Assembly (NCBI GenBank): GCA_046565705.1
Contig: JBKHYE010000123.1
Coordinates: 1,075 to 65,074, forward strand
Length of the DNA: 64,000 nt
Direction of reading: 5' to 3'
From: Actinomycetes bacterium
Lineage (GTDB): Bacteria; Actinomycetota; Actinomycetes; Mycobacteriales; SCTD01
The translations under genes were made by a program, and so were the position numbers. The notes under the pieces are model-generated. The model saw only the letters and a list, made by a program, of their open reading frames with translations, did not search any database and was not told the DNA's origin. Shown one piece after another: positions 12,774-64,000 of the stretch (position 1 is the stretch's first letter; each line of letters starts with the position of its first letter).

Positions 12774-13273
12774 CCCGCTGGGTCGCGCTGCTGCGCGGCG
12801 TCAACGTCGGGTCGGCGCGGCGGGTGTCCATGCCGGACCTGCGGGCCCGGCTGGCCGAGCGGGGTGCGGACGACGTCGCCACCTATGTGCAGAGCGGCAA
12901 CGTGGTGCTGTCCTCCGCCGGCGAGGCCGACAGCGTCGGTCGGCTGGTCCGCGACGCCGTCGCCGACCTCGGTGTCGGCTGCGACGTCGTCGTCCGCAGC
13001 GGCGCGGAGATGGCTGACGTCGTCGGGCGCAACCCGTGGCCGGACCGCGTCGGCGAGCCGACCAAGCTGAACGTCGGGTTCCTCGACGGCCCGACCGCAG
13101 GCGAGGCGCGCAGGGTGGCCGACGAGGAGGAGGTGCGGTTCGACGGCCGCGAGCTCTGGCTCTGGTACGGCGCCGGGCAGGGCCGCTCGAAGCTCGTGCT
13201 CGACGTCGGCCAGCGGGTGCTGACGGTGCGGAACTGGCGGACGGTGCTGGCGCTGGCGGAGATGTCGGCCTAG
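12770..13273 (+). CDS. DUF1697 family protein
   Basis: The GTG at 12770 overlaps the upstream stop (GTGA). Sequence: VTRWVALLRGVNVGSARRVSMPDLRARLAERGADDVATYVQSGNVVL...LTVRNWRTVLALAEM. The longer track ORF from 12134 overlaps the phosphatase gene out of frame. Confidence 0.75.
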   Translation: MTRWVALLRGVNVGSARRVSMPDLRARLAERGADDVATYVQSGNVVLSSAGEADSVGRLVRDAVADLGVGCDVVVRSGAEMADVVGRNPWPDRVGEPTKLNVGFLDGPTAGEARRVADEEEVRFDGRELWLWYGAGQGRSKLVLDVGQRVLTVRNWRTVLALAEMSA

Positions 13274-22260: not shown

Positions 22261-23532
22261 CTACTGGCCGCGGACGACGCCGCAGCCGGGGTTCTCGCCG
22301 ACCTCGGGCGCGGCCTCGGGGCCGACGACGATGCCGGCGGGAGCGCCGGTGCACGTCGTCCCGCGTACCGCGCCGGTGCTGCGGTCGGCGAACAGGAACG
22401 CCGCGCGCAGCACGCCGCGGACGGTGCTCCCCTCCACCTGCGGGGCGGACCGCTCGAGCGCCTGCACCCCGACGTCGCCGCCTTCGACGGTGAGCGTCCG
22501 CACGGCGGGGCGGGCGTCGCCGGCGGCGACGAGGCCGGCCGCGTTGTCGGTCAGCCGGGTGTCGGTGACGGTGCCGTCGCTCGTCGCGAGAAAGCAGATG
22601 CCGCACTGGCCGCTGCGCAGGACGCTGCTGCGCGTGATCTCGGCGCGGTGCTCCCCCGAGAGCACGACCCCGCCGACGCCGTTGTCGACGAGATCGGTGT
22701 CGAGGAGCCGAAGGGTCGTGCGCCGGCTCGGGCCGGTCTGCCCCGCGGCACCCGCGGCCATCAGGACGCCGATGCCACCGGTGCCCTCGGCGTCGCCGCG
22801 GGCCCCGGAGACCCGCGCGGAGGTGATGGACAGCTCCGCCGCCGGCGACGCGCTCACGACGTTGCCGGGCGCGTCGCCGGACCGGCTCAGGGTGAGCGCG
22901 TCGACGGCGACCGGCTCGCCGGTGAGCACCAGCAGGACGCCGTCGGCCGCACTGCTGCGCAGCGTCGTCTCGTCGCGCCCGGCGCCGCGCAGCGTGACGC
23001 CGCTCAGCAGCACCAGCGTCTCGTCGACCACGTGCTCCCCCGCGGCGAGCTCGACGACGCTGCCGCTCGCCGCGGCCGCGACGGCCGCGGCGACGTCGCC
23101 GCCCGGCGGCACCGGGCCGTCAGGCGGGCGACCGCCCTGCAGCTGCAGCAGCACGGCCCGGGCGACGGGGCCGCCGGCACGCAGGCCGCGCAGGCCCTCG
23201 GTGAGGTCGTCGCGGAACTCCTCCGGGTCGCAGCCGATGCTCGCCGCGTGCGCCCGCACGTTGGACAGCGCGGAGGTGAACTCCTGCTCCGCCTGCGCGG
23301 GATCGGCGGCCGGTGAGGGCGTCGCGCCGCCGTCGGGCGACGTCGTGCCGATGCTGTCGAGGTAGCGCTGCGCGGTGTCGAGCAGCGCGTCGACGGCGGC
23401 CGCGCAGTCGTCCTGGACCTGCGCAGCCGGGTCGGGCGGCGGTCCGGGGGTGGCGTCCTCGCTGCAGCCGGTCACGGCGAGCAGGCCGCACAGCACGGCG
23501 GTCGCCGCGCGCCGTCGACCGGTGCCCGTCAC
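22261..23532 (-). CDS. Lipoprotein with right-handed parallel beta-helix repeats
   Basis: MTGTGRRRAATAVLCGLLAVTGCSE contains a lipobox (LAVTGC). Periodic beta-helix-type repeats follow (...VTLRGAGRDETTL..., ...ITSARVSGARGD..., ...LLDTDLVDNGVGGVVLSG..., ...VTDTRLTDNAAGLVAAG...). GTG 23532 lies 19 nt after the giant-gene stop, with AGGA upstream. Confidence 0.75.
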   Translation of the reverse strand: MTGTGRRRAATAVLCGLLAVTGCSEDATPGPPPDPAAQVQDDCAAAVDALLDTAQRYLDSIGTTSPDGGATPSPAADPAQAEQEFTSALSNVRAHAASIGCDPEEFRDDLTEGLRGLRAGGPVARAVLLQLQGGRPPDGPVPPGGDVAAAVAAAASGSVVELAAGEHVVDETLVLLSGVTLRGAGRDETTLRSSAADGVLLVLTGEPVAVDALTLSRSGDAPGNVVSASPAAELSITSARVSGARGDAEGTGGIGVLMAAGAAGQTGPSRRTTLRLLDTDLVDNGVGGVVLSGEHRAEITRSSVLRSGQCGICFLATSDGTVTDTRLTDNAAGLVAAGDARPAVRTLTVEGGDVGVQALERSAPQVEGSTVRGVLRAAFLFADRSTGAVRGTTCTGAPAGIVVGPEAAPEVGENPGCGVVRGQ

Positions 23533-41500: not shown

Positions 41501-44500
41501 TCCGCTCGCGTCGCGCAGCTGCACCTCGTCGCCGTTGATGCTGCCGTGGTCGACCGCTGCGCCGCCGGCGCCGCGGAAACGCACCTCCACGTAGCGCTGG
41601 GCGTTGAGCTTGTCGCGGCCGATCGCGGCACCGGCGAGCCCGGTGAGCTGCGGCTGGCCGCTGGTGTCGAGGACGGTGCGGACCGCGTCCGCGGTCGCGC
41701 CCTCGACGGTGAAGCGCAGGACCTGCTCCAGGTTGTCGAAGGTCAGGCTCGGCGCCGGTGGGTCGCGCGCGCTGGTCTCGCCGACGGCGTTGTCCTGCAG
41801 CGTCACGGTGATCTCGCCGGGCCGCACCTCGTTGTGCAGGAAGAACCGCCAGGTGCTGTTGCCGAGCGGCTGCGGGCCGTTGCCGTTGCCGAGCACCAGC
41901 ACGCCGGCGCCGCCGAACCCGCCGATGGAGATGTCGGTCGCCGAGATGGTGCTCGGGTTGATGGCGTTCCCGGTCGTGGGGGTGAAGGCGATGTCGAGGA
42001 AGGTGCGGTTGTTGCCGAGGTTCGCCGCGGCGGCCGACGCCGACATCGGAGCCAGGTCGAGGTAGCTGAGGGTGCCGGCCTTGAAGGTGACTGTCACGGT
42101 CGTCGCGGAGCTGCCGACGGTGTCGAAGGTGACCGGGACGGCGAACTCGTCGTAGAAGGTCGTCTCGTCCGTGACGGAGTCGGTCACGGACACCACGCCG
42201 ACGTAGGTGATCGGCCGGATCTCGTCCCAGGTCACGACCCAGCCGTTCGTGGCGGTGAACTGCACGCCGGGGCTGGATGTCGCGGTGTTCTGGTCGACGA
42301 ACTGCGCGCGCTGGGTGATCGAGGCGGGGTCGACCCGGCTGCTGCTGGTGCGCTCGAACCGGATCCGCACCTCGCCCGCGGTCGACGTGGTGGGGATCGA
42401 CTCGGAGGCCTTCGCCGTCGTCCCGGACGGCAGGTACGACCACGTCTCGGGCAGGAAGGTGGCGGTGACCGACCCCTCGCTCACCGAGGCGAAGGCGCCC
42501 GTCACGAAGTAGCGGAAGGTGGTTCCGGTCGGGGCCAGCCGGACCGGCGCGCGTGACGGGTCGAGTTGGACGGTGCCGAGCCCCGGCCCGCCCAGGGTGA
42601 GCTCCGCCGCCAGGTCCGTGACCGACGCGACGTCGAGGTCCGCGGCGGTCTTGCCTGCGGCCAGCGGGAGGGTCACGTCCAGCCAGTTGCGGCTGTTGAT
42701 CTCGCGCACGTCGATGCCGCCGAGCGGCACGGGGTCGATCGTCGAGCCGGTGATCCCCACGATCGTGACGTCGACGGAGAAGGCCGCGTTGGTGGCGCCG
42801 GGCGTCGAGCCGGTGCCGGTCCTGAGATCGGCGTTCTTGAACGTGCCGGCGCCGAACGACAGCCGGACGCGGCCGAGGGGCAGCAGCGTCGCGGTGTCCG
42901 CGAAGGCGTACCGGTAGCGCGTGATGCCCTCGCTCTTGATCGCGGCCACCAGCATGTCGACGTCGGTCGGGTTCGTCCCGACGTCCTTGCCGCGGATGAC
43001 GATCACGCGGATGCAGGGGTTCTCCGCTGCCGGCGTCGCGGACCAGGTGCAGTCGGCCTGGGTCCCTGAGGTGGGCCGCTCGTCCCGGTAGGTGTAGAAG
43101 ACGATCTTCTCGCCGTTGTCGGTGCCGACCTGGAGCTTGGCGAAGACGACGCCGCCGGCCACCACGACGGTGACGATGGCGTCGGGTCGGGTCGTGGCGA
43201 GGGCCCGGCTCGTCCCCGTCGCGGTCGGCGTGCGGGCGCCGACGGTGACGGTGAACGGCGCGCTCGTGCGGGTGAGCAGGTGCCGCGCGTCGATGGTCGC
43301 GCCCGTGGCCGGCAGGAACACCACGTCGACGTGCCGGCCGGACAGGTTGGCCGCCGCCGCGTCGACAGTGCCGCCGGCGAAGCCCGGGCCGACGACGGTC
43401 GCGGTCGGCGCCGTGCTCGTGCCGGTGGCGGTCGGGACCGGTGGGGCGTCGGTGGCCAGCGGGTTGCCGCTGGAGTCGCGGAACCCCATCTTCAGCTTGC
43501 CGTAGATGGTCAGCAGCCGGAACTGGTCGGGGATGTCGGCGAGGAACAGGATCGTCACCGCGCCGCTACTCACCTTGGACAGGTCGGCGTAGAGGCGGGC
43601 GCTCATCGACAGGTTGTCGTTGGCGAAGTTGAGCTTGCCGACGATGAGGAACTTCCCGTCGGTGGAGATCTTGATGACGATCTGCCCGTTGAACACCGCC
43701 TGCGACGTGTAGATCGAGTACAGCTTCGCCGAGCCGGTGATGACCATCGGCGAGGTGAACGCCGCGAGGAAGGCCTCCCCTGGGCTCTTGCCGGCGGTGG
43801 CCTTGGCCTGCTTGGCCACCTGCTGCTGCAGCGACGCCAGCCACTGGTCGGCGGAGATGGCGGTCGGCAGGCCGAAGTCGGGACCGCGCAGCGCCATCGG
43901 GTCGTCGATGGACGGCAGCGACTTGAAGAACTCCACGCCGGCGACGAAGTCGTTGATGGTCAGGCCGGTGTTCGGCTCGAGCAGGATGCCGCCCGGCACG
44001 TTGACGTTGATGAGCACCTGCAGCGGGCCGAGCTCGGACAGGCCCACCCGGATGCCGAAGCCGGCCATGCCGGCGATGGTGAACGAGCCCTGGATGCCGA
44101 CGTAGAACACCCGCTGCGCGACCGGCGTCGTCTCGTCGAACACGCCGATGATGTTGTAGCTGCTGTCGAGCTTGAGGATGCCGCCGACCAGGCCGGCCTC
44201 GATCTTGCCGCCGAACAGGTCGCCCTTCACGGTGACGCCGAGGGCGTCGATGCCGATGATCGGGAACTTGCCCTGCGCGAGCAGCGCCGGCGCGATGCGG
44301 ATGCCCTGGACCGAGCCGCTGATCTCCAGCCCCGGGATGCCCTTGATGCCGGTGACGCTCGCGGACAGGATCAGGACGAAGTCACCGGGGTCGCTCTCGA
44401 GGTCGCGCCAGGTGATGCCGATCGCGTCGATCCGCACCGGCAGGAACGACGGCCACTTGAACGAGTCGCCGCTCGCGGCACCGACGGCGATGAACACGCC

Positions 44501-47500
44501 GAAGCCGGGCGCCGTCCGGAACGAGCCGTCACCGCGGATCGCGAAGTTGCGGCCCTCGCCGGTGAGCTCGAGCCCGGCGATGGTGACCCTGGCCGCAATC
44601 GAGCCGAAGTAGATGAGGTCGCTGCGCGTGCCGGCCGCTCCGGTGTCGAGCCGCACCGCGCGCGCCGTGAGCGTGACGAAGCTGCCCAGCCGAACCTCGA
44701 GGGTGTCGACGTCGATGAGCAGCGCCTGCACGACCCCGCGATCGAAGACGAGGGTGATGCGGAACGCCTCGTCGTCCGGGTCGTCGGCCGTCTTGCGGTC
44801 GGTGAGGCTCGCACCGAACGCCCGGCCCGGGAACAGCGACGCGCCACCGGTCGCCAGGTAGATGCTGCCGGTGAAGGCCGCGTCGGTGCCGCCGAAGGTG
44901 ACCGTCAGGCCCTGCACGCCGATGCGGATGTCGTCGAGCTCGAGGATGCCACCGAAGGTGATCTTCGGATCGGACGTCGCCGTCTGCAGCGCGTTCGGGT
45001 GGGTGCTCGGCAGGCCGTAGGCCAGCTCCGCCGTGCCCAGGGTGAAGCCGTTGCCGCGGACGACGAGGCCGGGCAGCAGCGTGGACCCCGCCGCCGTGGC
45101 GTCGCACCCGGCGGTCTCGCCGGGGTTGCAGTTGGTCTGCGTGGCCGGGTTGAACGGCTTGAGGCTGCCCGTGATGTTGAACCGCGGGAACGTGATCGTC
45201 GCGGTGTTGATGCGCAGGAGCTCCTGCGTGATCGGACCCTTCGGGTCGTAGCCCATCGAGATGCCGGTCGCCCGCACCTCGACGACGTTCGGGACGACGA
45301 CCTCGAGGCCGCCGATGACCAGGCTCCACTTGCCCGTGGGCTGCACCCGGACGTTGCCCGACAGCAGCCCGAGGACGTCGACCGCCAGGTCGAACGTGCC
45401 GAGGATGCCGGTGAGGTCCGCCGTGATGGCGCTGCCGGACTGCGACGTCGCGCCGGCCGCGCCGCCGAACGCCAGGCTGGCACGGTCCATGCTGATCGCG
45501 ATCGTGAGCACGACCATGCCGTCGGCGAAGCCGAAGTCGGCGATGCCGACGCTGGGGTTCACCAGGCTGAGCGGCCCGAGCACGGTCGTGCCGGGTGCGG
45601 TGGTGGCCCCGGGCGCGGCCGGGTCGACCGTGAACGTCTGGGTCAGCCCGGTCTCGTTCCAGATCGGGACGGACGGCGTCCCGCTGCGCCAGCCGTTCGC
45701 GACGAAGGTCACGGTGACCTGACCGGCGCTGAACAGCCCGACGGCGTTGTTCGGGTTGGTGTCCCGCAGGAAGTACCGGAGCGTCACCCGGGTGGCCGTG
45801 AGCTCTCGGCCGGCGATGATCAGCGGGGCTCCGACGATGAGCGGCCGCTGGCTCGCCGTGTCCTTCGCGAGATCCGCGGTGACGGCGCCGCTGAACACGA
45901 AGGGCGCCTGCGTCTGGCTGAGCAGGTGGTCCTTGTCGATGGCCGACCCGTCGTTGCTGACGAAGGTGACGTCGAGGTACCGCTGGCCGTTCAGCACGGT
46001 GGCGGTGACGGACGTGCCCGCGGAGGGGCTCGCGAGCACCGCCGTCGGCTTCGGCTTCGAGCCGGCACCGGTCCATGCCGAGACCAGGAAGATCAGCTGC
46101 TCGTCGGCGGCGTTCGTCGCCCCGATCTCGTCGCTGAACGAACCCGGCAGGAACTTCACGGTCAGCACGCCGGTGCCGGTCGGCGCGGCGCCGGTGAAGG
46201 TGTACAGCCAGGTGTTCGGCTTGCCGGCCACCGGAGTCGGGATGCCCGTCACGGCGTACTGCGTGCTGCCGAGCCAGACCTCGATCTCGGCGGCGGTGTC
46301 GGTGATGGTCTCCGGCCGGATGCGCTCGTTGTTGACCGGGTTGACGACGACCTCGATGCCGCCGGCCAGCTTGCTCGCCACGATCGCCGCCCGGTTCAGC
46401 GGGCGCCGGACGGGGGGCTTGGTGGTGTCGGTGACGTCGTCGAGCCAGGTGCCCAGGTCGGCGGTGAGGAACAGCCTGGGCTTGGTCGTGGATGCCGACA
46501 GGGCCGTGTCGGTGCTCGGGAAGATCTCGAAACCGTCCACCCGGAAGGTCTGCAGCCGGAAGCCGGTGACCGGCGAGATGGTGAAGGTGCCGTATCCGGC
46601 GAGCTTGACGACGGTGGTGCCGTCCACCTTCACCGCGACCGCCGCCGGCGCCAGCGCGATGTCGAGCGTGCCGTCCGGCTTGCGCCGCAGCGACATCGTG
46701 CCGGACAGGGTGAACACGTTCGCGACGGAGATGACCACGTCGGTGGCCTCGAAGCGGAAGTGGTCCGGCTCGATGGCACCGGCCAGGCTCGGTCCGCCCG
46801 GCATGCTCACGCCCGGCAGCTGGCCGGGCCCGGTGCCCATGGCCACCGTGCTCCCGGTGGTGTTGACCTGGAAGCCCACCTTGCCGGACACGACCAGGCC
46901 GGGCAGCCCGAGCAGGCGCAGCTCACCCACGACGCGGATGGCGAAGCCGCTCGTCGTCCCCTGCAGGAACTCCACGGTCGCGTTGGTGACGAGCACGCCG
47001 ATGGCGTCGGGGTGGTCCGCCCCGGTCGTGGCGTTGCGTGACGGTCCACGCCCGATGAAGATCTCGAGGTTCGTGCCGGTGAACCGGCCGCCCGCGATGC
47101 GGAAGTCACCGCGGATCTCGAGGAAGTCGCCGAAGTCGAACTCGAGATCCTGCAGCTCGAAGACGTACTTCTGGGTGCCGGTCATGGCCGGGATGTCGAC
47201 GGCCACCGTCGTCCCGGCGACGTCGATGGACTCCTGGACCCGTCGGCTGGTCGGGCCGGTGGTGTTGAACTGGACGACGATCGTGCCGCCGGCCGAGAAC
47301 AGCCCCGGGATGGTGATGTCGGCCCGGCCGCCGAGCTGGCCGGCGACGCCGTCAGATGCGATGACGATGGTGCCGAAGCCACCGGTCAGGCCGGGGATGC
47401 TCTGCCCGCTGTTGCCGGTGATGGCGGCGTTGGTGAACGCGATGATCGTGATCTCGCGCGGCGTCCCCGGAGATCCGCCGGTGGTCGGCGTCGACATCCG

Positions 47501-50500
47501 CCGCTCGATGGCCACGTTGGCGCTGACGGTGAGCCCGCCGAGCGTGAGCGACGCGCCGGTGAGCGACACGCGGAAGAACGGGCCGGCCGGCAGCACGACG
47601 GGCACCCCGGCGACGGTCTCGTTCACCGCGACGCGGGTGTTGTTGACCTGGATCTGGGCGACACCGACGGAGAACCCGGTGTTCCCGCCGAGGAGGTTCC
47701 GGAGACCATCCGTGACGGCGACGGCGCCGGAGAACGTGCCGGCGACGCCTCCGGGGAGCAGCAGGACCACGGCCGAACCGTTGGTCAGGCGCACGCCCAC
47801 GTCGTCGCTCTGGTCGACGGTGCCCTTGTCGTCGCCGAGGAACAGCTCGACGTCGAACAGGCCGATCCGCACGGCCTTGGTACCGGCTGCCGTCGTGACC
47901 TGCTCGAAGAAGACGACCGCCTGCAGCGACTGGCCGAACACGCTCATCGAGACCCGGCTGAGGGCGATGCTGTTCGCGGGGTCGGCACGGGTGCCGGCCT
48001 GGACGCGCAGGTACGGCGAGCCCGGTCCGGGCACCGTGCTGAACGCGACCTTGACCGTCGGGACGGTCAGCTCGAAGGCGTCGCCCAGCGCGAGGTCCAG
48101 CCCGAACGACGCGTTGACCTCGCCGGTGACGCCGTTGTCGGCCACGACGAGGAAGCCGCTGGTGATGGTGAGGTTCACCAGGTTGCTCGAGCCGTTGCCG
48201 AGGCTGAAGGTCACGTTCGAGAGCGTCAGCTGCAAGGTGCCGTCGCCCTGCTTGGCGAAGGTGAACGAGCCGCGCAGCTCGACGGCGGCGATGCGCAGCC
48301 GCACGTCGGTGCCGGCGATCCGGAAGGTCGGCGTCCCGGAGACGCTCGTGCGGGTGTTCAGCGACACCTCGAAGCCGCCGGTGACGGTGACACCCGGGAT
48401 GTCCACGCCGATCGTCGCGGCCAGCGTGCCGACCACCCCGTCGGCGTGCAGGGTGAACTGCCCGTGGCCGTTGCTGACCGTGACCACGTCGCGGGTCGCC
48501 GACCCGAGCCGCAGGCCGACGTTCGCGAACCGCAGCCGGGTCTCCACGACGTCGTCGCCGCCGGCGAGCGCCCCGTCGGCGCCGAGCGAGGTGGTGATGC
48601 GCTCGACCGTGACGTCACCGGTGAGGCGCTGGCCGGCGATCGCGACGACCAGCCCGGTCACCGAGACCTTCACGTACTGGTTCCCGGGCAGGACGAGCGT
48701 GGACGTCACCCCGTCGAGCACGAAGGTCTCGTTCACCGCGACCGGGACGAGCTTGCCGGCGACCGTGCGGCGCATGTCGTTGAACTCGACGGCGACCGTC
48801 GCGGACAGGGCGCCGCCGGCCGGGTTCGAGAACCCGGGTACCACGAGCGTCGCGGTGCCGGACAGCCGGCCCGCCACGCCGTCGGGCGTGATGACCAACC
48901 GGGCCGACCCGTTCGAGAGGGTGAAGCCGACGCCGCCACCGGGGCCGAGGTACAGGCCCGCGCGCTCGATGGCGATCCGCACGACGGAGACGTCGTCGGT
49001 GGTGTTCGTGACGCCGTCCGGCCCGGCCGAGCGCACCTGCTCGAAGGCGTAGACGCCGCTGAGGGTCTGGCCGAAGGCGGTGAGCCGGGCGAGCTTGAGC
49101 CCGCCGGTGTCGCTCGGGTCGTAGACGCCGACCTGCAGGCGCAGGAAGCGCCCGGCCGGCAGCGTCGCACCACCGACGGCGACCTGCGCGGGCGTGGTGT
49201 TGAGCTGCAGCTTCACCCCGGCCGGGTCCGAGCCGGTCGTCAGCGTGAGCACGCCGGGGAAGCCCACCAGCGTGACGGCGGCGCTGAGGTTGGCCGCCAC
49301 GCCGGCCGGCGTCAGCAGCACCTCGCCGTTGACGGTCGTGATGGATAGGCCGGCTGTCGTCGTGCCGAGGGTCAGCGCCGCGTTGGTGACGGTGATCTTC
49401 GTCGTCCGCGCGTTGTTGGCCGGGTCGACGGTCTGGGTGACGGCGAAGCCGCCGGACAGCCGCTGGCCGGCGATCTCGAGGACGACGCCGGTGCCGCTGA
49501 TCGCCAGGTGCTTGGCGGCCATCGTCGGGATGACGACGTTCCCTCCGCCGACGACGATCGTCCGGCCCGTGAAGGTCGTGGTGGTCCCGGTGTTGACCTC
49601 GACCCGGAAGGTGCCCTCCAGCACCACCCCTGGGACGTGCACGGCGACGGTCCCGCCGAAGACGCCGGACACGCCGGTGGCCACCGAGCTGGTCACGACG
49701 AAGGCGCCGGCGCCGTTCGTGACGCTGACCAGGTCGGTCGTCCCGGTGCCGATGCGCAGGGTGATGTTGCGCAGGCCGAGGACCGTCTCGTACGGGCCGG
49801 TGCCGATCCGCTCGAAGCTGACGTCGCCGGACAGGGTCTGGCCGAGCAGCGAGAGCGTGATGCCGAGGCCCTCAACCCGGACGTAGGTGCCCGCGACCAG
49901 GTCCAGGGCGACGGTCGCGGCGCCGATCGACACCGTCTGCACGATGCGCTGGCCGGTCTGGTTCACCGTGAGGCGGAACGTGCCGGCGACGACGACGTCC
50001 GCGGGCAGCAGGCCCGCTGTCGACAACGTGCCGGAAACGGTCCCGGCCGGTCCGGCGCTGCTCAGCACCACGACGCCGGTGACGTTGCCCAGCACCGTCA
50101 GGGTGCCGAACCGCAGGGTGCCGCCGGTGATGGCGAGGACCGTGCGGGTCTCGCCGCCGCTGGTGGCGCGCTCGAAGCTGAGCCCGCCGGTGAGGGTGAT
50201 GTCGCCGCCACCGATGGTGACCTCGAGGTTGGCGCCGGTGACCTTGAGGTACGGGCCGCCCGGCAGGCGGGTGCCGTTGGCAAGGGTCACGGGGACCGCG
50301 CCGTTGTTCACCTGGACCGTCAGCGTGCCGGAGACCGCGAACCCCGGCGCCGAGATGCTGCCCACCACGGTGAGCTCGCCGGCCAGGCCGGTGCTGCCCA
50401 CCTGCAGCGCGCCGCTGAGCGTCAACGAGCCCAGCCCGCCACCGAGGGCCAGGGTGGCCCCGGTGACGGTCACGGTGACCAGCCGCGAGCCGTCGGTCTG

Positions 50501-53500
50501 CGTGCTCTGCGTGACGTCGAAGGTGGCCACGGTGAGCGCGACGTCTGCGACGCTGAACGCCACGTTGGTGCCGCGCACCTTGAGGTAGGGGCCCGCCTCC
50601 GCGATCGCCAGCGTGACCGCACCGACCTTGACGCCGGCGTCGTAGCCGCCCGTCGTCGTGCGGGAGCGGCGCATCGGCAGTGCCGCGCCGCCCTCTGAGG
50701 TGACCAGCTCGAGCACGCCGTCGCCTCCGAGGTCGCCGAGCGCGAAGCCACCGGCGAGGGTGGTGCCCGCGGCCAGCAGCTCGGTGCTCGTCGACGCGAA
50801 GCCCTGCCAGACGCCCGTGTCGTCGTGCGGCCCGCGGTTGAGCCGGGCGAACAGTCCGCCACCGCTCGTGGTGCGCACCAGGTCGACCCGCCTGTCGCCG
50901 TTGACGTCGACGAGCAGCACCCGGGTCGTGTCGCTCGTCCCCGGCTGCCCGCTCGGGGTGGCGAAGGTGGTGAACCCACCGGTGCCGTCGCCCTTGTACA
51001 GCGCGTCCGTGCCGGAGCCGCCCCGGCCCACGAACAGGTCGAGCTTCGCGTCGCCGTCGACGTCGGCGAGGGCCAGCACCGCGGTGGCCGGCACGGTGAC
51101 GCCGGTGAGCGCGGCCCCCGCGCCGAAGCCGAGCCAGCTGCTGTCGGTGCTGCTGTTGCCCAGGCCCTGGTACATCGTCACCGTGGTGCCGCCGGCGGTG
51201 CGGACGAGCAGGTCGGCGGCGACGACCGGGGCGGTGTCCTTGACGTTGCCGATGACGATCGACGCGGCGTTGCTGCCGAGCGCCACCCCGACGGTGGCCT
51301 TGGCGAAGGCCCCGGCACCGGTGTTGCGCCAGACCTCCGTCGCGCCGCTCGACCCGACCACGACGTCGGGCTTGCCGTCGCCGTCCAGGTCGCCGACGGC
51401 AAGGGCGGTGACGGCGGCGGGGGCGGTGAGCACGACGAACGGCGGGACGCCGTCGAACGGGTCGCCCACGCCGTCGTTCACGTAGAGCAGCACGGTGCTG
51501 GCCGAGGCGACGAGCAGGTCGGGCCGACCGTCACCGGTGACGTCCGCCAGCGCGAGAGCGGTGGTGCTGGTCGGTGCGGTGCCGAACGTCACGGTCTCCG
51601 AGACCGTCGCGCCGCGGCTGTTGAACAGCACCGAGAACGTGCCGGACAGCGTCACGCCGGGGATCGTCACGGCCACGGTGCCCGTCACGGTGCCGGCCAG
51701 CCCGGCACCTGCCCCGCTGCCCGACTTCAGCGACAGCAGGCCGCTGCCCTCGGACAGCGTCACGTACGCGGTGGTGCCGTCACCGAAGGACGCCGTGACG
51801 TTGCGCAGCAGGATGCGCACGACGGTGTCGACGCCGACGGCGGCCCTCTCCACCACGACGTCGCCGGTCAGCCGCTGGCCGCCGAGCGTCAGCACGATGC
51901 CGATGCCCTCGACCCGCAGGTAGGGCCCGCCGGGGACGTCCAGGGTGATGGTGCTGCCGCCGGCGGTCACCGACTGCCGCACCGCCGCGACGCCGGTGTT
52001 GACCGCGACGGTGAACGTGCCGGTGAACGCCGCCTGGCCGGCGCCGGGCGGCACCAGCAGCGAGACGTTGCCGGTGATGCGCCCCGCCACGGTGCCGTTG
52101 TTGACGACGAGCAGGCCGGTGCCCCCGGTGAGGCTCGCCCCGGCGCCCGCAGCGCCGATCGTGAGCGACACCTGGTCGGCGAAGATGCGCAGGATGCGCG
52201 GCGCTTCGGTGCCGGCGGGCGCGCTGGGGCTGACCTCGCCCCGCACCTGCTCGAAGCCGAAGATCCCCGACAGCGTCTGGCCGCCGATGGTCAGGGTGAG
52301 CGGCGACGCCGTCTCCGCCCGCACCGACCCCGGCTCGAGGACGCCGTACGGGCTGATGGTGACCCGGTCGGGCGTGGTGTTGATGCGCAGCGTGACCGAC
52401 AGGCTCGAGCCGCTGAACGGGTTGCCGGGCAGGGCGAGGACGAGCGACCCGCTCACGACACCGGCCACGCCGGTCGGGCGGATCTCGAAACTGCCGCTGC
52501 CGATCCGCACGACGACCGGGTGCACGCCGCCGCTCGGCTCGCCGAGCCGGAGGTCGACCGGGCTGCCGCCGGTGAGGGCGTCGGTGCCCAGCCGGACGGT
52601 GATGACGCTGCCGACCCTGGTGACGGCGATCGAGCCCGACAGCTCCTGGCCGCCGAAGCCGAGGGTGACGTTCTGGGCCACGATGCTCTGGGTGTTGTTC
52701 TCGACCGAGGTGCCGTGCAGCGACTGCGTCGAGCCGGTGTTGTTGTAGCGGAACGACAGGCTCGTGCCGGACAGCGTCAGGCCGGGGATGCCGATGACCG
52801 CGATCGAGCCGGTCAGGACGAAGGCGTACTGGCCGGACGCGGGGTTCATGCCCTCCCCGGCGACGTTCGTGAGCAGGAAGCCGCGCGCGGACGGGTTGAC
52901 CTGCGACGGCGTGCTGCTGTCGCCGTCGAGGTAGTAGGGACCCTCGCCGAGGAACAGCGTGACGTTCGAGATCGTGAACGCCGTCGCCTGCCAGGTGATG
53001 CTGCCGTAGAACTCGAACGGGCCGAGCTGCAGGGCGAGCTTGGCGCTGATCTCGACGAACGGCTCGACCGACGGCGTGTCCTGCCGGACCTCCGTCGCGG
53101 AGAAGACGATCGGCAGCGCGACGCCGTTGACGAGGACGAGCTCGTCCACCGCGCCGGCGGTGCCGTTGACGCGCGCCTTGATGTCGGCGCCGACGGAGAA
53201 CCCGCCACCGCTGCCGGCGTCGGCCTGGCCCGAGATGACGCCGGCCGCGCCGTCGGCCGTGAGCACGAACGCGCCCTGACCGTTCTCGATCTTGACCGCG
53301 TCGGTGCCCAGCGTGACGGTCACGCCGGAGAACCCGATGAGGGTGATCTCCACGGGCGTGTTGTGCAGCGCGCGGACCGGGCCGGACGCCGTCCCCGCGA
53401 TGACGAGGTCGAGGTCGCCGTCGCCGTCGGCGTTGACGAGCGCGACGAGCGCCGCGGCGCTCCCGGCGACGGTGGTGACGCCGACCTTCAGCGTCACCGG

Positions 53501-56500
53501 CGACGGCGCCCGCAGGCCGAGCCAGGTGCCCGCGCCGTCGACGCCCTTGTTGCGCATCAGCCGCGGGCCGTCGCTCGCCGTCGTGAGGACCGCGTCGAGC
53601 CGGCCGTCGCCGTCGACGTCGCCGAGCAGCGCCCCGGTCGCGCCGGTCCCGGTGCCGAGGTCGGTGGCCGCGATCTGCCAGGTGGCGTTGCTCACCGTGG
53701 CGCCCTCGAGCGCGGCGGCAGCGGCCGTGCCGAAGGCACCGCGGACCAGGCCGGTGAACGACGTGCCGGTCTTGCCGGTGTAGAACACCTTCTCGCTGCC
53801 GAGCAGCAGCACGCCGCCGTCGGCGAAGCCGGCGGTGCTCGCGACGGTGACCGTCGTGGCGGTGGCGTTCAGGCCACCGGTGCCGGTGACCGTCGTGGAG
53901 ACCGCGGCCGCCGGGAGCACGTTGCGGCCACGCCACAGCTGCGACGTGCCGGAGCGGGTGACCAGGACGTCGGTGAAGCCGTTGCCGTCGAGGTCACCGG
54001 CGACGGCGCCGGTCGCCGCCCCCGAGGACAGGAGGGTCGGCGGGGCGAAGAGCAGGCTGGTGACGACGGCGCCGGTCGCGACGCTGGCCGCGGCGCTGGT
54101 CGAGTCCAGAGCCCGGGTCAGGCCGGTGAACGAGGTGCCGGTCGTGCCCGCGTAGCGCAGCCGCTCGCTGCCGTTGACGATCAGCCAGCCCGACGGCGCG
54201 AACCCGGCGGTGCTCGTCACCGCGAGAGCCGTCGAGGCGCTCGTGAACGCACTGGTGGCCACCGCCGTCGTGCCGCCGCCGACGCCGGTCCAGACCGAGA
54301 CACCGGCGCTGCCGGCCACGACCAGGTCGCGCAGGCCGTCGTTGTCGAGGTCGGCCAGCAGCAGCGAGGTGACGCCGGTGGTGGTCAGCGTGCGGGCGTG
54401 CGCGGTGGTGCTCATCCCGAGCCACTGGCCGACCACGTTCACCGGCGCCTGGTGGCTCAGCGGCGCGTCACCACGAGCCGAGACGAGCAGCAGGTCGCCG
54501 TCCTTGCCGCTGTACGTGATCGGCTCGGTGCCGTCGACGACGACCGTGCCGGACGCGGCCAGCGGGGTGGCGCTGTCGACGGCGAGGTAGCCGACGGCGA
54601 CGGTCGCCCCGGCGGCCCGGTCACCCACGCTCGTGCCGTACTGCCCGCGCACCAGGCCGCCGAGAACGCCGGGAGCCACCGAGGTGTACCGGACGAACTC
54701 GGCGCCGATCTTGGCGATGCCGCTCGCGGCGAAGCCGGCGGTGCTGGTGACCTCGGCGAAGCCGACCGTGACGGTCGCGCCGCTGAGGTGGCCGGCGGCG
54801 GCCGTGCCGTTGACGCCGCGCACCAGCCCGTTCAGCGTCGTGCCGCTGAGGGAGGCGTACCGGATGAACTCGGTGCCGATCCGGATCAGGCCCGTGGCCC
54901 CCAGCCCGGTCGCGCTGCTCAGCGTCAGCGACGTGCCTCCCGAGCCGAGCGCGGCGGTGAGCGTCGGCAACGTGGCGGGAGCGGAGGTTCCCGAGGCGAG
55001 CTGCTGCGCGAGCGTGCTGCTCGCCGGCACGACGTCGGCGGCCAGGTCGGCTGCGAGCGTCGCCGTCGCGTTGCCGCCGTTGAGGAAGACCTTCGTCGTC
55101 GTCGAGCCGCTCGCGCCGATGACCAGGTCGGCGAAGCCGTCGCCGTTCACGTCACCGACCGTGACAGCCGAGGCGTCCGGCGTCGAGAACGCCGACCCGG
55201 ACAGGCCGTAGCCGAGCCACTGGGTGACCGTCGCGCCGGCGGCGTGCGCCGTCGCGCCGGCGAGCCGGCTCACGCCGGTGAGGGTGCTGCCGGTCTTGCC
55301 GGTGTAGGCGAGGTACTCGCCGCCGATGCTGACGACGCCGGCCGAGGCGAAGGCGCTCGCGTCGGCCAGGGTGAGCGTCGTCGCGGTGGCGCTGATGCCG
55401 GCGGCCAGCGTGGAGGTGCGGTTGCCGAGGTTGCGGTAGACGGCCGTCTGGCCGGTGCTGCCGTTCTTGGCCACGACGAGGTCGGGCCGGCCGTCACCGT
55501 CGAGGTCGGCGAGGGCGACGGCGGTCGTCGTCGTGCCGGTGCCGCCGACAAGCGACACCGAGGCCGTGTTGGCGAAGGTCCCCGCGCCGGTGCCGCGGAA
55601 GACCGAGACGCCGCTGCTGGTGCCGACGAGGAGGTCGACCAGGCCGTCGCCGTCGACGTCGGCGACGCGCAGCACCGTGGGGGTGACCGTCGGACCGACC
55701 GGGTTGGCGTCACCGAAGCCGGGCTTGGTCGAGCGCTCGACGGCGAAGCTGCCGGTGAAGCCGGTGCCGGCGACGCTCAGCGTGGCGCCGGTGACCTCGA
55801 ACCGCGCGTACGGCCCGGCCTTGAGCAGCGTCGCGCCGAGCTGCACCGGCAGCGACGTCGTGTTGATGGCGAGGACCGTGGTGCCGCCGGAAAGGGAGGC
55901 GTTCGAGCCGAAGGTGAAGCTGGGCGTGCCGGTGACGAGCGCCGCGACCCCGTTCGGGGTGATGCGGATGGCGCCGCTCCCGGTGAAGGAGGCGAACGTC
56001 CCGAGCGTGATGCTCAGGCCGGTCACCGTGACGTTCACCTGGACGCTCGGCGCGGTCCCGGTGCGCTCGAAGGTGAACGACGCTGCCGACACACGCACAC
56101 CGGCGACCGTCAGGTAGGTGCTGCCGGCGGTGAGCCGGATGGTGCCGGCCGCGAGGCCGCCCTGGAGGCCGCCGGTCGTGTTGAGGTCGAGCGTGACCGT
56201 GGCGCCGAGCTGGACCCCCGGGACCTCCACGACCAGGTCGGCGTTCGTGATGCTGCCGTACACGCCGCCGGCGACGGTGGTCGCTCCGGTGCGACGGGCC
56301 CCGATGACGGTGAAGCTGCCGCTGATGTTCGTCGCGCGCACGATCGGCGCCGTCGGCGTCCCGAGCGAGATCTCGCCACCGGTGATGGCCAGCGTCACCG
56401 AGCCCGGTGTCGTGCCGGTGCCGTCGACCTTGGTGAAGGTGAACGTGCCGGAGATCGTCTGGCCCGCCACCGTCAGGCTGACGCTGGAACCCGTCACCCG

Positions 56501-59500
56501 CAGGTAGCTGCCGCTCGCGACGGTGAGGGTCGTCGTGACGCCGCCGACGACGAAGTCCTGGGTGAAGCCGCCGGCACCGGTGTTGAGCTCGAGCGCGAAG
56601 GTGCCGGCCAGGGCCACGCCGGGCACGCCGGTCAGCGCGACGGTGCCAGTGGCGCGGCCGGCGACGAAGCCGCCGGCGAGCTGGAACAGGGCCTCGCCGT
56701 TGGTCAGGCTGACGAGGTCGCGGGTGCCGTCGCCGAGGGCGGCGCTGACGTTGCTCGCGGCGATGCGGACGACCATGACGTCGTCGTTCACGTTGCCGTT
56801 GGCCGGGTTGGGGCCGGCGACGCCGTCGGCACCCAGGCCGGTCACGACCCGCTCGAAGGAGACGTCGCCGCGCAGCGCCTGGCCGGCGACCACGAGGGTG
56901 CCGCCGATGACCGCGACGCGGACGAACGGCCCGGCGGGCACGTTCAGCGACAGCGTGGTGCCGCCGACCGCCAGGCTCGTGGCGACTGCCGCCGCCGTGG
57001 TGTTGATCTGCAGCCGGACGTCACCGGCGAGCGACAGCGCCGGGCCGGCGGTCACGCTGAGCGTGGCGGCGAGCGAGCCGGCGACGCCCTCCGGCGTCAC
57101 GACGAACAGGCCGGTGACGCCGGTGGCCCGCACGGTGCCGAGCAGGTCGAGCGAGCCGCCGCTGACGGCGAAGCGCACGACCTTGGTGCCGGCGGCGGTC
57201 GTGGCCTGCTCGACCGTGAACGAGCCGGCCAGCGTCTGGCCGAGCACCGTCAGGGTGACCGGCGCGAGGGCGGTGCCGCCGGTGACCCGCAGGTACGGCC
57301 CGGCCGGCAGCCCGAGCGCCGCCACGCCGGTGGTGTTGACCGCGAGCCCGAAGGTCCCGCCCAGCGCGAACCCGGGCACCGACACCACCAGCGTGGCCTC
57401 GACCGAGCCCGCCAGGCCGGCGGCGGTGAGGAGCAGCTGCGCGGGCGTGGAGGTCTGGGTGACTTGGACCAGCGGCGCGGTGTCGGTGCCGCCCAGGCGC
57501 AGCCGCAGGTTGCGGGCGGTGACGGCGAGCACGACGGCACCGGCGGCGTCGACGGTGCGGGTGAGCTCGACGTCGCCCGACAGGCTCTGGCCGACGAGCG
57601 ACAGCGTGATGCCGGTGCCGACCACCCGCAGGTACGGGCCGCCCGGCAGCGCCAGCGACACCGGCGTCGGCGAGCCGCCGACGAGGAAGGACGTGCTGAC
57701 CGGCGTCGTCGTGGTGTTGACCTGCACCGACAGCGTGCCGCTGATCGCCACCGACGGGACCGACAGCGAGACGGTGCCGCTGACCGTGCCGGCCAGCCCA
57801 CTCGGGCGGACGACGAACAGCGCCGTGCCGCCGGTGACCGACAGCATGCCGCCGATCGACAGCGAGGCGTTGGTGACGGCCAGGCGCACGACCTGCGTGT
57901 CGTCGCCGCCACCGGGCACGCCGTCGGCACCGAGGTCGGTGGCGCGCTCGAACGCGACGTTGCCGGTGATGGTCTGGCCGAGGACGGTGAGGGTCAGGCC
58001 GGTGCCCTCGAACCGCAGGTACGGGCCGCCGGGCAGCGCGACGGCGAGCGTCGCGGCGCCGACGGCGACGCTCGTGCTGACGGCGGCCGAGCCGGTGTTG
58101 ACGGCGACCGACAGGGCGCCGGACAGCGCGACGCCGCCGGGCAGGTTGACGGCGATCGTGCCCGACAGGCGGCCGGCGACCGCGGTGCCGGTGGACACGA
58201 GGACGCCGGAGCCGCCGGTGAGCCGGACGCCCGCCGCCGCCGTGCCGAACAGGACCTCGACCCCGGTGAGGCCGACCGTCGTGACGGTCGAGCCGTCGGA
58301 CGCCGTCGACCGCTCGAGGGCGACGTCGGCGGTCAGCGACGCACCGGCGAGCGCGAGCGTGACGCCGCTGCCGCTGACCCGCAGGTACGGGCCCGCCGGC
58401 AGGTCGAGCACCACGGTGCTGCCGGCGACGTCGATGCTGCGGCTGACCGCGGGCGTGCCGGAGTTGATCGAGACCGCGAAGGCGCCGGTGAAGACCACGC
58501 CCGGCACCGTCACGGTGATGCCGCCGCTCACGCGGCCGGCGAGCCCGGCTGCGGTGGAGACGAACGCGGCCGTGCCGTTGGTGACCGTGACGGCGCCGCC
58601 GGCGAGGGTGGCGCTGACGCCGGTGGCGCCGACGACGACGTCACCAGCAGGCGCCGTGTCGAACGAGAAGCTGCCGGTGAGCGACTGCCCGGCCAGCTGC
58701 AGGGTCGCGCCGCTGACCGAGAAGGACCTGACGACCGCGGAGGTCGGGAACAGCAGCTCGATCCCCGGCCCGGTGCTGCCCGGCACCGAGAGCACCAGCG
58801 GGACGGCCGCGGTGGCGCCGTGCACCGGCGCGCCGGTGGTGTTCACCCTGACGCTGACCGTGCCGCCCGAGATCACGACACCGGCGATGCCGATGAGGCT
58901 GACGCTGCCGGTGGCGACGAGCGCGTGGCCGGCGCCGGCCTGCACGACACCGATCCGGGCGCCGGACAGCAGCACGCCGCTGGCGAGCGGGTTGATCTCG
59001 CCGCTCTCGAGCCGGGCGGGGCCGCGCCCGAGGAAGATCGTCAGTCCCTCGCCGGCGAACCGGCCGCTGCTGTCGAAGGAGACGTCGCCCTCGATCGTGA
59101 GGAACTCACCGATGGTGAGCCTGGCGCCGAGCAGCGCCACCTCGACGAGCGGCGTCGAGACCTGAGCGAACTTGACGACCAGCGTGCGCCCGCCGACCTG
59201 GATCGCCTCGTCGATGTCCTCGCCGGTCACGGTGATGACCCGCACCACGACCCGCGCGCCGGCCGACACCGGACCGGCCGCGATGCTGGCGGTGCCGTTG
59301 AGGTAGCCGGCGATGCCGGTGCTGCGGAGCAGGAAGGCGCCCTCGCCGCCGGTCAGCTGCACGCTGTCGCCGCCGACCGTCGCCGACACGTTCGACGCGC
59401 CCACGACCGCGACCTCGTTGCCGGCGCCGTCGAGCCGGCGCTCGAACGCGAAGTCCCCGGACAGGGACGGGCCGGTGGCGGTCAGGCTGAGGGCGGCGCC

Positions 59501-62500
59501 GACCACCTCGACGCGCAGGTACGGCCCGGCCGGGACGGACAGGACGGTCGAGGTCGTGCCGACCGTGAAGGTCTCGGCGACCGCCGCGGCCCCCGTGTTG
59601 ACCGCGAGCCGGACGGTGCCACCGGTCAGCGTCACGCCGCCCGCGGCGACGGTGACGCCGGTGACCAGCCGCCCGGCCACCCCTGCCGACGTGAGCAGCA
59701 GCTGACCGCTGGTCGGGCCGACCGTCACCGGACCGAAGCTCAGCAGGTTCTGCGGGACGCTCGACACCAGCGCCGGCGTCACGGCCGCTCGGACGACGGT
59801 CGCGCCCGCGGCCGTCGTCGTCTGCTCGAACGAGATGCCGGTGCGCAGCGTCTGGCCCGCCACGACGACCTGCACGTCGGCGCTGCCGACGGCGACGCGC
59901 TGCTGGCCCGGACGCGTGTCGAACGACGCGGTGAGGGTGGAGGCGATGCTGATGCCCGGCACGGCGAAGCTGACCGGGCCGCTGAACGAGCCGTGGGCAC
60001 CGGTCGCCGTCAGCGTCAGGGTGAGCGACGCGGGGCCGACGGCCAGCAGCCCGCCGCCGAGCGACAGCGACGCGTTCGCCACCGTGAGCACGGTGTCGGC
60101 GCCGCTGCGGACGACGGTGACGTCGCCCGACACGGACTGGCCGAGGACCGAGACCGACAGCCCGGTGCCGACGAACCTCACGTAGGTCTGCCCGCTGCCC
60201 GAGGCCGGCAGCACCAGCGGCACCGAGACGCCGCCGACGGTGAAGATCTCGTTGACCGCCTCGTCGAGGCTGCTGACCTGCAGGGTGAGGGCTCCGGCGA
60301 CCCAGACGCCCGGCACGTTCACCGCGACCGTGCCGCGGATCTCGCCGGCGACGCCGGCCGCCTTGAGGAGCACGACACCGGTGCCGCCGGAGAGCGACAC
60401 CACCGGCGTGCCGCCGGCGCCGAGGGCGAAGGTGAGGTTCGCGACCGCCACCCGGACGACAGGCGTACCGCCCTGGACAGCGGTGCGCTCGATCGCGAGG
60501 TCGCCGACCAGCGTCGGCCCAGCGGTGCCGATCCGGAACCCGGCGCCGAGCGCCTCGACCCGCAGGTACGGGCCCGCCGGCAGGTCGTCGACCGCTGCGG
60601 CACCGGTGTTGAGCGCGACCGAGATCGTGCCCAGCTCGAGCGCCGACAGGGTCGCGCCGGTGTCGACCGTGCCGGAGACGCGCCCGGACACCCCGGCGGC
60701 CGTGACGGTGAACGCGCCGTTCACGCCCGTGACGGACAGGATCGTGTCGCCGCTCTCGGCGGTGGCGCCGGTGCGCAGGGCGAACGATCCGCCGGTGACA
60801 GCGACCCGGGTGGTCGTTCCGCCGCCGGCGGTGACGCGCTCGACCGACAGCGTCCCCGCCGACAGCAGGATGCCGGCGAGCCGGATGCCGATCGGGCCGC
60901 CGGCCAGCTTCAGGTACGGGCCTGCCGGCAGGCTCACCGAGCCGGCCTGCTGCGCGATCGCCGTGGTGTTGAACGCGACGGTCAGGGCGCCGGTCTCGAT
61001 CGCCACGCCGGGCAGGTTCAGTGACAGCGAGCCGGTGATGCTGCCGAAGGCGCCGGTCGTGCCGACGGTGAAGGTCGACGTCGCGCCGGTCTGGCCGATC
61101 GCCGGGCTGGCGAAGGTGCCGATGACCGTGGCGCCGTCGCGCAGCTCGAGCCGGACGTTCGTCGTGCTGACGGTGAAGCCGCCGGCCGTCCGGGCGAAGC
61201 CGAGGTCCGCGGTGAACGACGTGCCGCCGACCGCGATCGTCAGGCCGGTCCCGCGCACCTGCACGAAGGGCACGGTGGCGCTGGGCGCCCGCTCGTCCGG
61301 CGTGGACGCCGTGCCGTCGGTGAAGCGCACGATGACGTCGCCGTCGCCGTCCGGGAAGGCGATCGTCTGGTTCACCGCGGTGGTGAGCTCGTTGACCCGG
61401 ACGACGATCAGGCCGGTGACGGACAGACCTGGCAGCCCGACGAGCTCGACCGTCCCACGGACGTCGAGGGCGTACTTGCCACCGGACTTCCAGAAGCCGA
61501 CCGTCGCGCCGGTGAGGAGCAGCCCGCGCGCCAGCGGGTTGCGCGTGCCGTCGGACAGCAGGGCCGGCCCGTCGCCGACGAAGACGGTGAGGTTGCGGCC
61601 GGCGAACCCGCCCTCGCTGCCGGTGAAGTCACCGGTGATCGTGACGTAGTCACCGATCGTGAGCGTGCCGCCGAGGATCGACAGCGAGAAGACGATCGCG
61701 GCGTCGGTGAACACGACGCGCAGGTCCTGCCCGCCGACCGACACCGTCTGGTCGACGGCCGAGCCCGAGTTGTTGACGCGCACGACGACGTTGCCGCTGA
61801 TCGACAGCGGGCCGGTGTTCGCCGACACGGTTCCGGAGACGTAGCCCGCGATGCCGCCGGGGACGGCGGGCGTCGCCGCCGGGTCGGCCGGCACCACGAC
61901 GAGTGCGCCGGTGACGTTGCTGATGGTGACGGAGTCGGCGGCGACGGTGATGCGGCCGTTGCGGATGGCGAGCACCGTGCTGGCGCCGGACCGGCTGAAC
62001 AGGAAGGTGCCGGAGATCGTCCCGAGTGCCGGTGAGCCGAGCGTGATGGCGTTGGCGGCGTCGACGGTGACCTCGACGCGCGTGCTGCTCGCGGCGAGGG
62101 TGCGGCCGCCGACGACGGCGGCGGTGGTGCGGGTGTTGACGTCCACCCGGGCCGCGATGCCCGTGGCGCTCAGCACGCCCGGCACCTTCAGCGACGCCGT
62201 GGCCGTGAGGGTGCCGGCAGTGCCGCTGGCCGCGATCTCCAGCACGCCCGTGGAGACGCGCACCGACGCGATGCCGTTCGGCAGCACCAGCGAGACGCCG
62301 GACAGCGACACGGTGACGACGGCGCCCGCCGCCGTGGTCGTGCGCTGCAGCCGGATGTCACCGGTGAGCTCCAGCCCGGCGATCGTCAGCGTGACGTTGA
62401 TGCCACCGACCCGCACGGTCGACGCGGCCAGCGCGACGCCGCTGACCGTCTGCGGGGTCGGGGTGGTGTTGATCTCGACGCGGACGCCGCTGGACAGCGA

Positions 62501-64000: not shown

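Follow-up and report, generated by a model that had tools for sequence, protein, structure and literature searches.

A widespread repeat module predicted to form a continuous amphipathic beta-ribbon in a giant actinobacterial protein

Tandem-repeat stalks are already known from giant bacterial surface proteins. In the giant RTX adhesins, such as MpIBP (region II), LapA, and SiiE, dozens of units of about 100–110 residues stand in tandem and form the bulk of a megadalton surface protein. Cag_663, a giant protein of Chlorobium chlorochromatii, is predicted to contain an "extended beta-sheet with continuous hydrophobic cleft" and has been proposed to dimerise (10.64898/2026.03.19.712371, a 2026 preprint), and the AsmA-like/TamB and VPS13-type repeating beta-groove proteins are long open antiparallel sheets of repeated strand units with one hydrophobic face. 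Here we describe a ~110-residue module repeated in tandem in a giant protein of an uncultured actinomycete (assembly GCA_046565705.1, contig JBKHYE010000123.1, positions 1,075 to 65,074 of the forward strand; these 64,000 nucleotides, the whole stretch of DNA that was analysed, are called the window below). Neither curated families nor solved structures nor viral models cover it, and structure prediction supported by coevolution indicates that consecutive copies join into one continuous amphipathic antiparallel beta-sheet, which departs from the usual beads-on-a-string picture of such proteins.

The module is encoded in a giant open reading frame (ORF) on the minus strand, listed at 23552..63889 (13,445 residues) with a frame that is still open at base 64000, giving a feature of 23552..64000 whose N-terminus lies beyond the window end. 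Counted to the window end, the protein has at least 13,482 residues, a mass of ~1.36 MDa, and an isoelectric point of 4.6. Residues are numbered from the listed ORF start (63889, minus strand), with negative numbers for the open frame toward 64000, and features of the protein are given below on the minus strand. GC content at codon positions 1, 2, and 3 is 0.65, 0.54, and 0.97, and this pattern, above all the third-position value (GC3), identifies the minus-strand ORF as coding, as expected for DNA of 70–75% GC. Long plus-strand ORFs over the array (e.g., 50825–61024) were ruled out by GC3 as antisense artefacts, and a non-coding or antisense reading of the array was rejected on GC3 together with the existence of homologues.

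A phmmer query with a single module found 31 copies in the giant protein and none in 20 composition-preserving shuffles of its N-terminal 5,800 residues. An iterated self-profile hidden Markov model (HMM) raised this to 39 strong copies between aa −35 and 5737 (46679..64000), with per-copy E values of 1e-9 to 1e-35. The original prediction, made by reading the window, had counted about 37 copies in 47230–64000; exactly 37 of the strong copies lie there and two more just downstream, and the array itself proved longer, reaching 46679 (551 nt past that start coordinate) and running past the window end. Copy 1 begins within the last 111 bases of the window, beyond the listed ORF start, and is cut by the window end. 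Spacing is periodic as predicted, at 102–147 residues (306–441 nt), a slightly wider range than the 315–380 nt first given. The array falls into three blocks: block A (copies 1–23, aa −35..2720, 55730..64000), defined from the self-HMM domain table and an alignment of single modules, and, from the self-HMM, block B (copies 24–28, aa 3518–4132, 51494..53338) and block C (copies 29–39, aa 4362–5737, 46679..50806). They are separated by two FG-GAP/VCBS blocks (aa 2721–3517 and 4133–4361), interruptions that were absent from the original prediction.

Copies share a median of 29% and at most 54% amino acid identity. DNA self-matches of at least 100 nt are no more than 75% identical (the longest ones 64–67%), and Tandem Repeats Finder reported no tandem array with a period near 330–360 nt, in agreement with the earlier view that this is old, selected repetition. 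The order of elements is identical in every copy, as had also been predicted. Among the copies of this protein, the Asn at module position 59 (N59, in the VNT motif) is present in 85%, the G83, P84, and Y/F85 positions in 46–62%, and Arg, Gln, or Lys at the FER position in 82%. The repeat is thus a genuine and ancient module at the protein level.

AlphaFold2 predicted a single module, from an alignment of 38 copies, with a predicted local distance difference test score (pLDDT) of 96.6. Three consecutive modules (aa 1753–2112; 15 rows of paralogous triples plus homologues) were predicted with a mean pLDDT of 91.6, a predicted template modelling score (pTM) of 0.81, and no low-confidence linker. 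Each module comprises eight predicted beta-strands connected by turns of 2–5 residues, of which six (b1–b4, b7, and b8) are 12–15 residues long and two (b5 and b6) have 7 residues each. In the reference module used for the strand map and coevolution ladders (copy 17, aa 1872–1983, 57941..58276), the strands are b1 TVTTVGLTGVEVLFG, b2 GVRLTGGSGVLVS, b3 AVAGRLSGTIAVN, b4 GVALSGALSVAV followed by NTGSA, b5 AVSTSVA, b6 AATLAVA followed by LPGG, b7 PYLRFEGTGLTLT, and b8 GQTITGNVAFERAT.

Coevolution across the family independently recovers this topology. From 170 proteins we collected 1,852 instances of the module, and mean-field direct coupling analysis (DCA) was applied to the 1,291 near-complete ones; 35 of the 50 top couplings fall in five predicted antiparallel ladders, compared with 9.5% by chance. 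By position sum, these are b1–b2 at ~26, b2–b3 at ~60, b3–b4 at ~92, b7–b8 at ~196, and b4/b7 together with b5/b6 at 144–145. Couplings of b4/b7 and of b5/b6 run in a common register, so that b4+b5 and b6+b7 form a single long hairpin, at whose kink the VNT turn (59–61) faces LPAGPY (80–85). Most of the remaining strong couplings (34–65, 23–74, 27–65, and 27–78) tie the tip of this hairpin to b2 and b3, which indicates that the b5–b6 tip folds back as a flap. What had been described as a variable loop between VNT and LPAGPY is therefore better described as a short beta-hairpin flap, absent in ~5% of modules. The coupled residue types are physically plausible and include salt bridges at R87–E109 (the Arg of LRV and the Glu of FER), R36–E57, and D36–R55, and glycine is exchanged for a large hydrophobic residue (G to V/L/I) at the coupled pairs 6–22, 24–35, and 54–90 on the hydrophobic face.

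Coevolution also extends from one module to the next. DCA of 856 adjacent module pairs revealed an antiparallel ladder between b8 of one module and b1 of the following one (105>5, 105>4, 104>6, 106>3, and 100>8), and 105>5, 105>4, and 104>6 rank 13, 16, and 43 among all pairs. When module k was instead paired with module k+3 of the same protein, those scores dropped to between −0.27 and 0.09. The maximum of this control was 0.92, and weak inter-module pairs scoring below ~0.95, such as those from b7/b8 to b3 of the next module, were discounted for this reason. The b8–b1 ladder implies that the sheet is continuous across modules. Column statistics show a strict hydrophobic/polar alternation in every strand, so that one face carries Val, Leu, Ile, and Phe with conserved glycine "holes" and the other is rich in Thr and Ser with Arg–Glu/Asp pairs; strand positions on the hydrophobic face have a mean Kyte–Doolittle value of 3–4 on every long strand. 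The positions best conserved among the 1,291 modules are N59 (95%), G32 (86%), A34 (84%), and G104 (83%). In the predicted models, the array is one continuous amphipathic antiparallel beta-sheet, which is neither the beads on a string nor the solenoid, in their classical forms, between which the original prediction had proposed to decide.

We searched for this module in sequence and structure databases and found no named family that fits, in line with the original prediction. Across all 13,445 residues, Pfam-A hmmscan (E ≤ 0.01) matched only FG-GAP_3, FG-GAP, HemolysinCabind, and Calx-beta, with sub-threshold Laminin_G_3 and Peptidase_M10, and none of these matches was to the module; NCBIfam gave, for the first 9,500 residues, only an RTX match that was below threshold and fell away from the modules. 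Three homologues of ~3,000 residues with 21–24 modules each contain no Pfam family. The FG-GAP/VCBS models (PF13517 and PF01839) match only within aa 2721–3517 and 4133–4361 and leave the module itself unmatched, and no Pfam model for parallel beta-helices or solenoids (Fil_haemagg and Beta_helix, for TpsA/FHA-type and pectate-lyase-like folds) matches in the module region; the module is also unlike parallel-helix fibres because it is an antiparallel hairpin meander with one Asn per ~110 residues, placed at the hairpin kink. A 38-module profile searched against all PDB sequences returned chance-level matches only (E ≥ 0.14). Foldseek found no match at E ≤ 1e-3 in PDB or BFVD for the single module or the module triple: the best matches of the single module were assorted open sheets and sandwiches (TM-score 0.27–0.33, E ≥ 0.068), and the best viral match of the three-module model reached a TM-score of 0.44. 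The three-module model otherwise aligned only locally, to membrane barrels of 16–22 strands (TM-score ≤ 0.26, root-mean-square deviation ~20 Å), and these outer-membrane barrel matches were rejected as local meander similarity. Literature searches yielded no published description of the module.

The same profile matched 1,782 proteins at E ≤ 1e-3, 465 of them at E ≤ 1e-30, among 1.84 billion representatives of 50% identity clusters, and none of these proteins bears a module-specific name; the names that sources do give are "hypothetical protein", "VCBS repeat-containing protein", and "calcium-binding protein". Members come from Actinomycetota, Verrucomicrobiota, and Desulfobacterota, and the highest copy number, 49, is reached by a protein of 7,479 residues. 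Named actinobacterial carriers are the isolate Microbacterium sp. NPDC019599 (WP_360134932.1), Microbacterium sp., Propionibacterium sp., Micropruina, and Ilumatobacteraceae, and others are Verrucomicrobiales, Rariglobus, Desulfobacteraceae, and an Olavius algarvensis-associated bacterium. This is a widespread family that no curated resource names, with a well-supported topology unseen in PDB, and describing it would give an annotation to a considerable amount of "dark" sequence within proteins of megadalton size (at least 1,782 clusters). The cultured NPDC019599 isolate makes experiments possible.

Narrower searches recovered less of the family. Scanning genome contigs with a single protein gave two loci only, both in Solirubrobacterales metagenome-assembled genomes, and a search for homologous proteins with a three-module query gave 23 matches, mostly frameshifted metagenome fragments. 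The same kind of search with the single-module profile, limited by its word index, gave only 3 short matches. Many of the homologues P0001–P0013 are fragments of 250–620 residues with out-of-frame Arg/Pro-rich tails, and in two loci gene prediction splits the giant gene into two neighbouring genes (7,479 + >6,576 residues in L003; 4,617 + >8,337 residues in L004). It is likely that frameshifts, errors of assembly, or wrongly placed gene boundaries conceal how large and how numerous these genes really are in public databases.

Several features place the protein near the systems introduced above. As in the giant RTX adhesins, the units are of similar length and number and stand in the company of RTX and Calx-beta domains, with acidic inter-unit loops that could bind calcium and a presumed role as an extender, but the module has no sequence or fold match, its strands are twice as long, and it is predicted to form a continuous sheet rather than closed sandwiches. 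The repeats of MpIBP are near-identical, whereas the copies here are highly diverged. GGxGxD nonapeptides of the RTX type occur in the C-terminal third, outside the module array. Unlike the RTX adhesins, the host is an actinomycete, and no ABC/MFP/TolC type I export system was found among the neighbours in 23.5 kb on one side of the giant gene. Compared by description only, Cag_663 likewise has thousands of residues predicted as one long sheet with a hydrophobic face, lacks a match to any solved structure, and has other domains protruding at intervals (HK97-like domains there and FG-GAP propellers here); it differs in its diderm source, its export by a type I secretion system, and the parallel beta-helix of its C-terminal half, and its structure is also only predicted. 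With the AsmA-like/TamB and VPS13-type proteins, the array shares a continuous antiparallel sheet of repeated strand units and one hydrophobic face, which may form an open groove. The giant protein and its homologues carry FG-GAP_3/VCBS blocks, as do the VCBS/FG-GAP giant proteins, hence their naming by the Prokaryotic Genome Annotation Pipeline (PGAP); the module is not that repeat, being unmatched in module-only proteins and outside the two inserted blocks.

We suggest, with a probability of roughly 0.6, that these modules are an ancient family building a continuous ribbon, and that this ribbon is the rigid extracellular stalk of a giant, membrane-anchored, adhesin-like protein and displays its FG-GAP propellers. 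The repeat, its distribution, the strand topology, and the continuity and amphipathicity of the sheet are the parts shown by the analyses above: in each module, b1–b4, b7, and b8 are neighbours within a single antiparallel sheet; b4+b5 and b6+b7 make an extra-long hairpin, kinked where the Asn of VNT meets the LPAGP turn, with its tip flapping back across b2 and b3 on the hydrophobic side; and the last strand, ending in FER, pairs with the first strand of the next module to continue the ribbon. Export, anchoring, ribbon length, and the role as a stalk or in adhesion are inferred. The giant protein would be exported and then held in the membrane by its C-terminal helix, with the ribbon as a stiff distal stalk or scaffold pushing the propellers and the missing N-terminal part away from the cell, where the projected domains may serve adhesion or cell–cell or cell–matrix contact. 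At ~6 in-sheet strands of 4.8 Å per module over 39 modules, we estimate a ribbon length on the order of 0.1 µm. A surface location is suggested by the FG-GAP, RTX, Calx-beta, and LamG-like domains, by the C-terminal helix followed by RRR, and by the signal-peptide-like N-termini of the homologues P0040 and P0031.

Other observations weigh against so simple a stalk. The predicted models do not fix the curvature of the sheet, the burial of its strongly hydrophobic face, or its real length, and the flap, with ~6 hydrophobic residues against ~40 inward-facing residues per module, cannot cover that face, so a monomeric stalk may be an incomplete description. Any signal peptide of the giant protein lies outside the window together with its N-terminus. 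The proposed adhesion role comes by analogy, from the FG-GAP, Calx-beta, and RTX domains that occur alongside the modules. In a Microbacterium homologue, the HExxH domain and a hydrophobic anchor are N-terminal, and polarity relative to the cell is therefore not conserved.

The hydrophobic face raises the alternative that it is itself functional: ribbons might zip face-to-face into a two-layer fibre or sheet, or lie on or channel lipids, a waxy envelope, or hydrophobic substrates, by analogy with AsmA/TamB-type grooves, the apoB beta-belt, or the dimerising cleft sheet predicted for Cag_663. We regard this as unlikely, though well worth keeping in view. In its favour, one face is strongly hydrophobic on every long strand, the single-module model is unlike any compact sandwich or barrel, and its weak, non-significant Foldseek matches are open-faced sheets (CapZ, MS2 coat, MTP, and apoB100), with the three-module model aligning, only locally, to membrane beta-barrels. 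The cleft sheet of Cag_663 is likewise a prediction for a giant bacterial protein, and the preprint proposes that it dimerises (10.64898/2026.03.19.712371). In its strongest form, this alternative would make the array an undescribed fibrous architecture spread over at least three phyla and possibly related to Cag_663, an amphipathic ribbon of ~100 nm or a two-ribbon zipper whose hydrophobic face drives self-assembly or handles hydrophobic material, a proposal we offer tentatively and consider doubtful. The monomer topology, however, explains every strong coevolving pair, and the sequences hold no evidence for a specific oligomer interface. No Pfam model for AsmA, TamB (DUF490), or YhdP matches the giant protein at E ≤ 0.01, and no AsmA-like, TamB, or VPS13-type PDB entry is among the Foldseek matches listed. 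The module has eight strands and a flap, with no cross-over element, whereas a repeating beta-groove unit has five strands and a crossing element. The family occurs in monoderm phyla, including Actinomycetota, as well as diderm ones, and the array would be far longer than any periplasm or envelope gap. How a hydrophobic face of ~0.1 µm is handled outside the cell is the question that could make this module more than a new Pfam entry.

Two further readings are far less probable. Independent beta-sandwich domains of the Ig-like, cadherin-like, Big, or DUF11 type, strung on linkers as in the stalks of MpIBP, LapA, and SiiE, would account for a tandem all-beta unit of ~110 residues with Asp/Gly-rich inter-module loops and for the RTX and Calx-beta domains typical of such adhesins. 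This reading is already contradicted: the modules of the giant protein and of the three module-only homologues match no Pfam or NCBIfam model at E ≤ 0.01, be it Big, Cadherin, DUF11, He_PIG, or another, a confident match of this kind being what the original prediction had named as its refutation; at 12–15 residues, the strands are roughly double the length of those in Ig-type domains; Foldseek found no sandwich domain (best TM-score 0.27); and both the pTM over three modules and the b8–b1 coevolution point to sheet continuity. Nor do we think that the module is primarily a glycan carrier with the conserved Asn as an N-glycosylation sequon, a reading that draws on the frequent N-T-T motif, the Thr/Ser-rich polar face, and a PMT-family glycosyltransferase gene ~9 kb from the homologue in L003. 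PMT enzymes O-mannosylate Ser and Thr, not Asn. Although the Asn is nearly invariant family-wide, Ser or Thr at +2, which would complete an N-x-S/T sequon, is found in only 67% of family modules and 46% of the copies here, and Gly is common at that position. The residue lies where the long hairpin kinks, across from LPAGP and close to the b2–b3 turn, with the couplings 32–61 and 32–60. The original prediction had offered either a structural Asn ladder or a sequon; with only one Asn per six in-sheet strands there is no stacked ladder, and a structural role in capping or kinking the hairpin is much more likely than glycosylation.

Departures from the standard module were also seen along the protein. 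In four module pairs (aa ~757, ~1607, ~3600, and ~5599; window ~61600, ~59050, ~53070, and ~47070, minus strand), the b8/b1 junction is exchanged for a variant reading GxFAGxxLTxFxGxGPAxLxxGxxNPxAxGxLL, which is also present in homologues P0025 and P0027 and suggests a conserved higher-order super-repeat or special junction. Asp/Gly-rich inserts of the GADGVxGxxDD type occupy turns 3, 17, 20, 33, and 34 between b8 and the next b1 and, judging by their sequence, may bind calcium. Five weak copies (E 1e-6 to 4e-15 by the self-HMM; aa 6590–8570) sit far downstream of the main array, one at aa 6590–6659 (43913–44122) and weak or degenerate copies at aa 7961–8570 (38180..40009), within a stretch of ~3,000 residues (aa 5737–8690) without Pfam annotation. 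The start of this stretch, 'GPLSL..PS.GI.D.GF.DGM.VLTI....DRASL.FGG', is kept in the Olavius-associated homologue P0026.

The first FG-GAP/VCBS propeller block (aa 2721–3517, 53339..55729; Pfam FG-GAP_3 E 1.9e-54 and FG-GAP E 2.5e-34) fills a gap of 797 residues between modules 23 and 24. Its blades alternate with ~6 copies of a ~55-residue 'IGxExxxY...RG..GT.A' element, e.g. 'LTLADASAFASAGVVSIGGEYLAYTGKTGSTLTGVSRLAGATAHAAGATVT', which was read from the sequence and is matched by no Pfam model; homologue P0021 carries an element that looks similar. The second block (aa 4133–4361, 50807..51493) likewise lies in a gap between modules, with its best FG-GAP stretch at aa 4160–4194. Beyond the array and the unannotated stretch that follows it comes an Asp/Gly-rich region with RTX-type nonapeptides (~aa 8690–12260, 27110..37822; HemolysinCabind E 8.3e-19, six stretches), then a concanavalin/LamG-like lectin domain and four Calx-beta domains (~aa 12436–13220, 24230..26584; Calx-beta E 1.2e-52, Laminin_G_3 E 1e-4, below the curated cut-off). 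The L003 genome has the same order, with modules and FG-GAP followed by RTX and Calx-beta.

Near the C-terminus, we detected a small metzincin-like HExxHxxGxxH domain ('DAAGWGW...HEIGHVLGLEH', aa ~13243–13340, 23870..24163; partial Peptidase_M10 E 1.9e-4, below the cut-off), which is 45% identical (E 2e-17) to aa 258–340 of the Microbacterium homologue P0040. In that homologue, it lies N-terminally, right after a signal/anchor segment, and is thus membrane-proximal in both proteins despite their reversed polarity; its motif suggests that it might be a self-processing or shedding protease. A Pro-rich linker then leads to a C-terminal hydrophobic helix, WPAALWVALLAAMLGALLAM, read directly from the sequence (23585..23644) and followed by RRRMLPARVA, which we take to be a probable membrane anchor. 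The tail, ...ADLAEFGPVGTPPTWPAALWVALLAAMLGALLAMRRRMLPARVA, consists of this helix and a basic end and contains no LPXTG or LAXTG motif.

Neighbours of the giant gene in the window include a beta-helix lipoprotein, a DUF4032 kinase-like protein, an MFS transporter, and a beta-propeller protein, among others. The first of these genes, immediately downstream (22264..23532, minus strand), encodes a 423-residue putative lipoprotein with an LLAVTGC lipobox and a right-handed beta-helix (Beta_helix/NosD-like; Pfam Beta_helix E 2.1e-8). A homologue with its own lipobox (39% identity, E 1.6e-58) adjoins the giant homologue in Microbacterium sp. NPDC019599 (L004, 8391–9683), and the two genes look like a conserved pair. 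A second large ORF of 1,308 residues, open at the window start (1–3924, minus strand), contains four LGFP repeats, a CBM96-like region, and an RHS repeat, and its domain content suggests that it may be a wall-associated protein of the polymorphic-toxin type.

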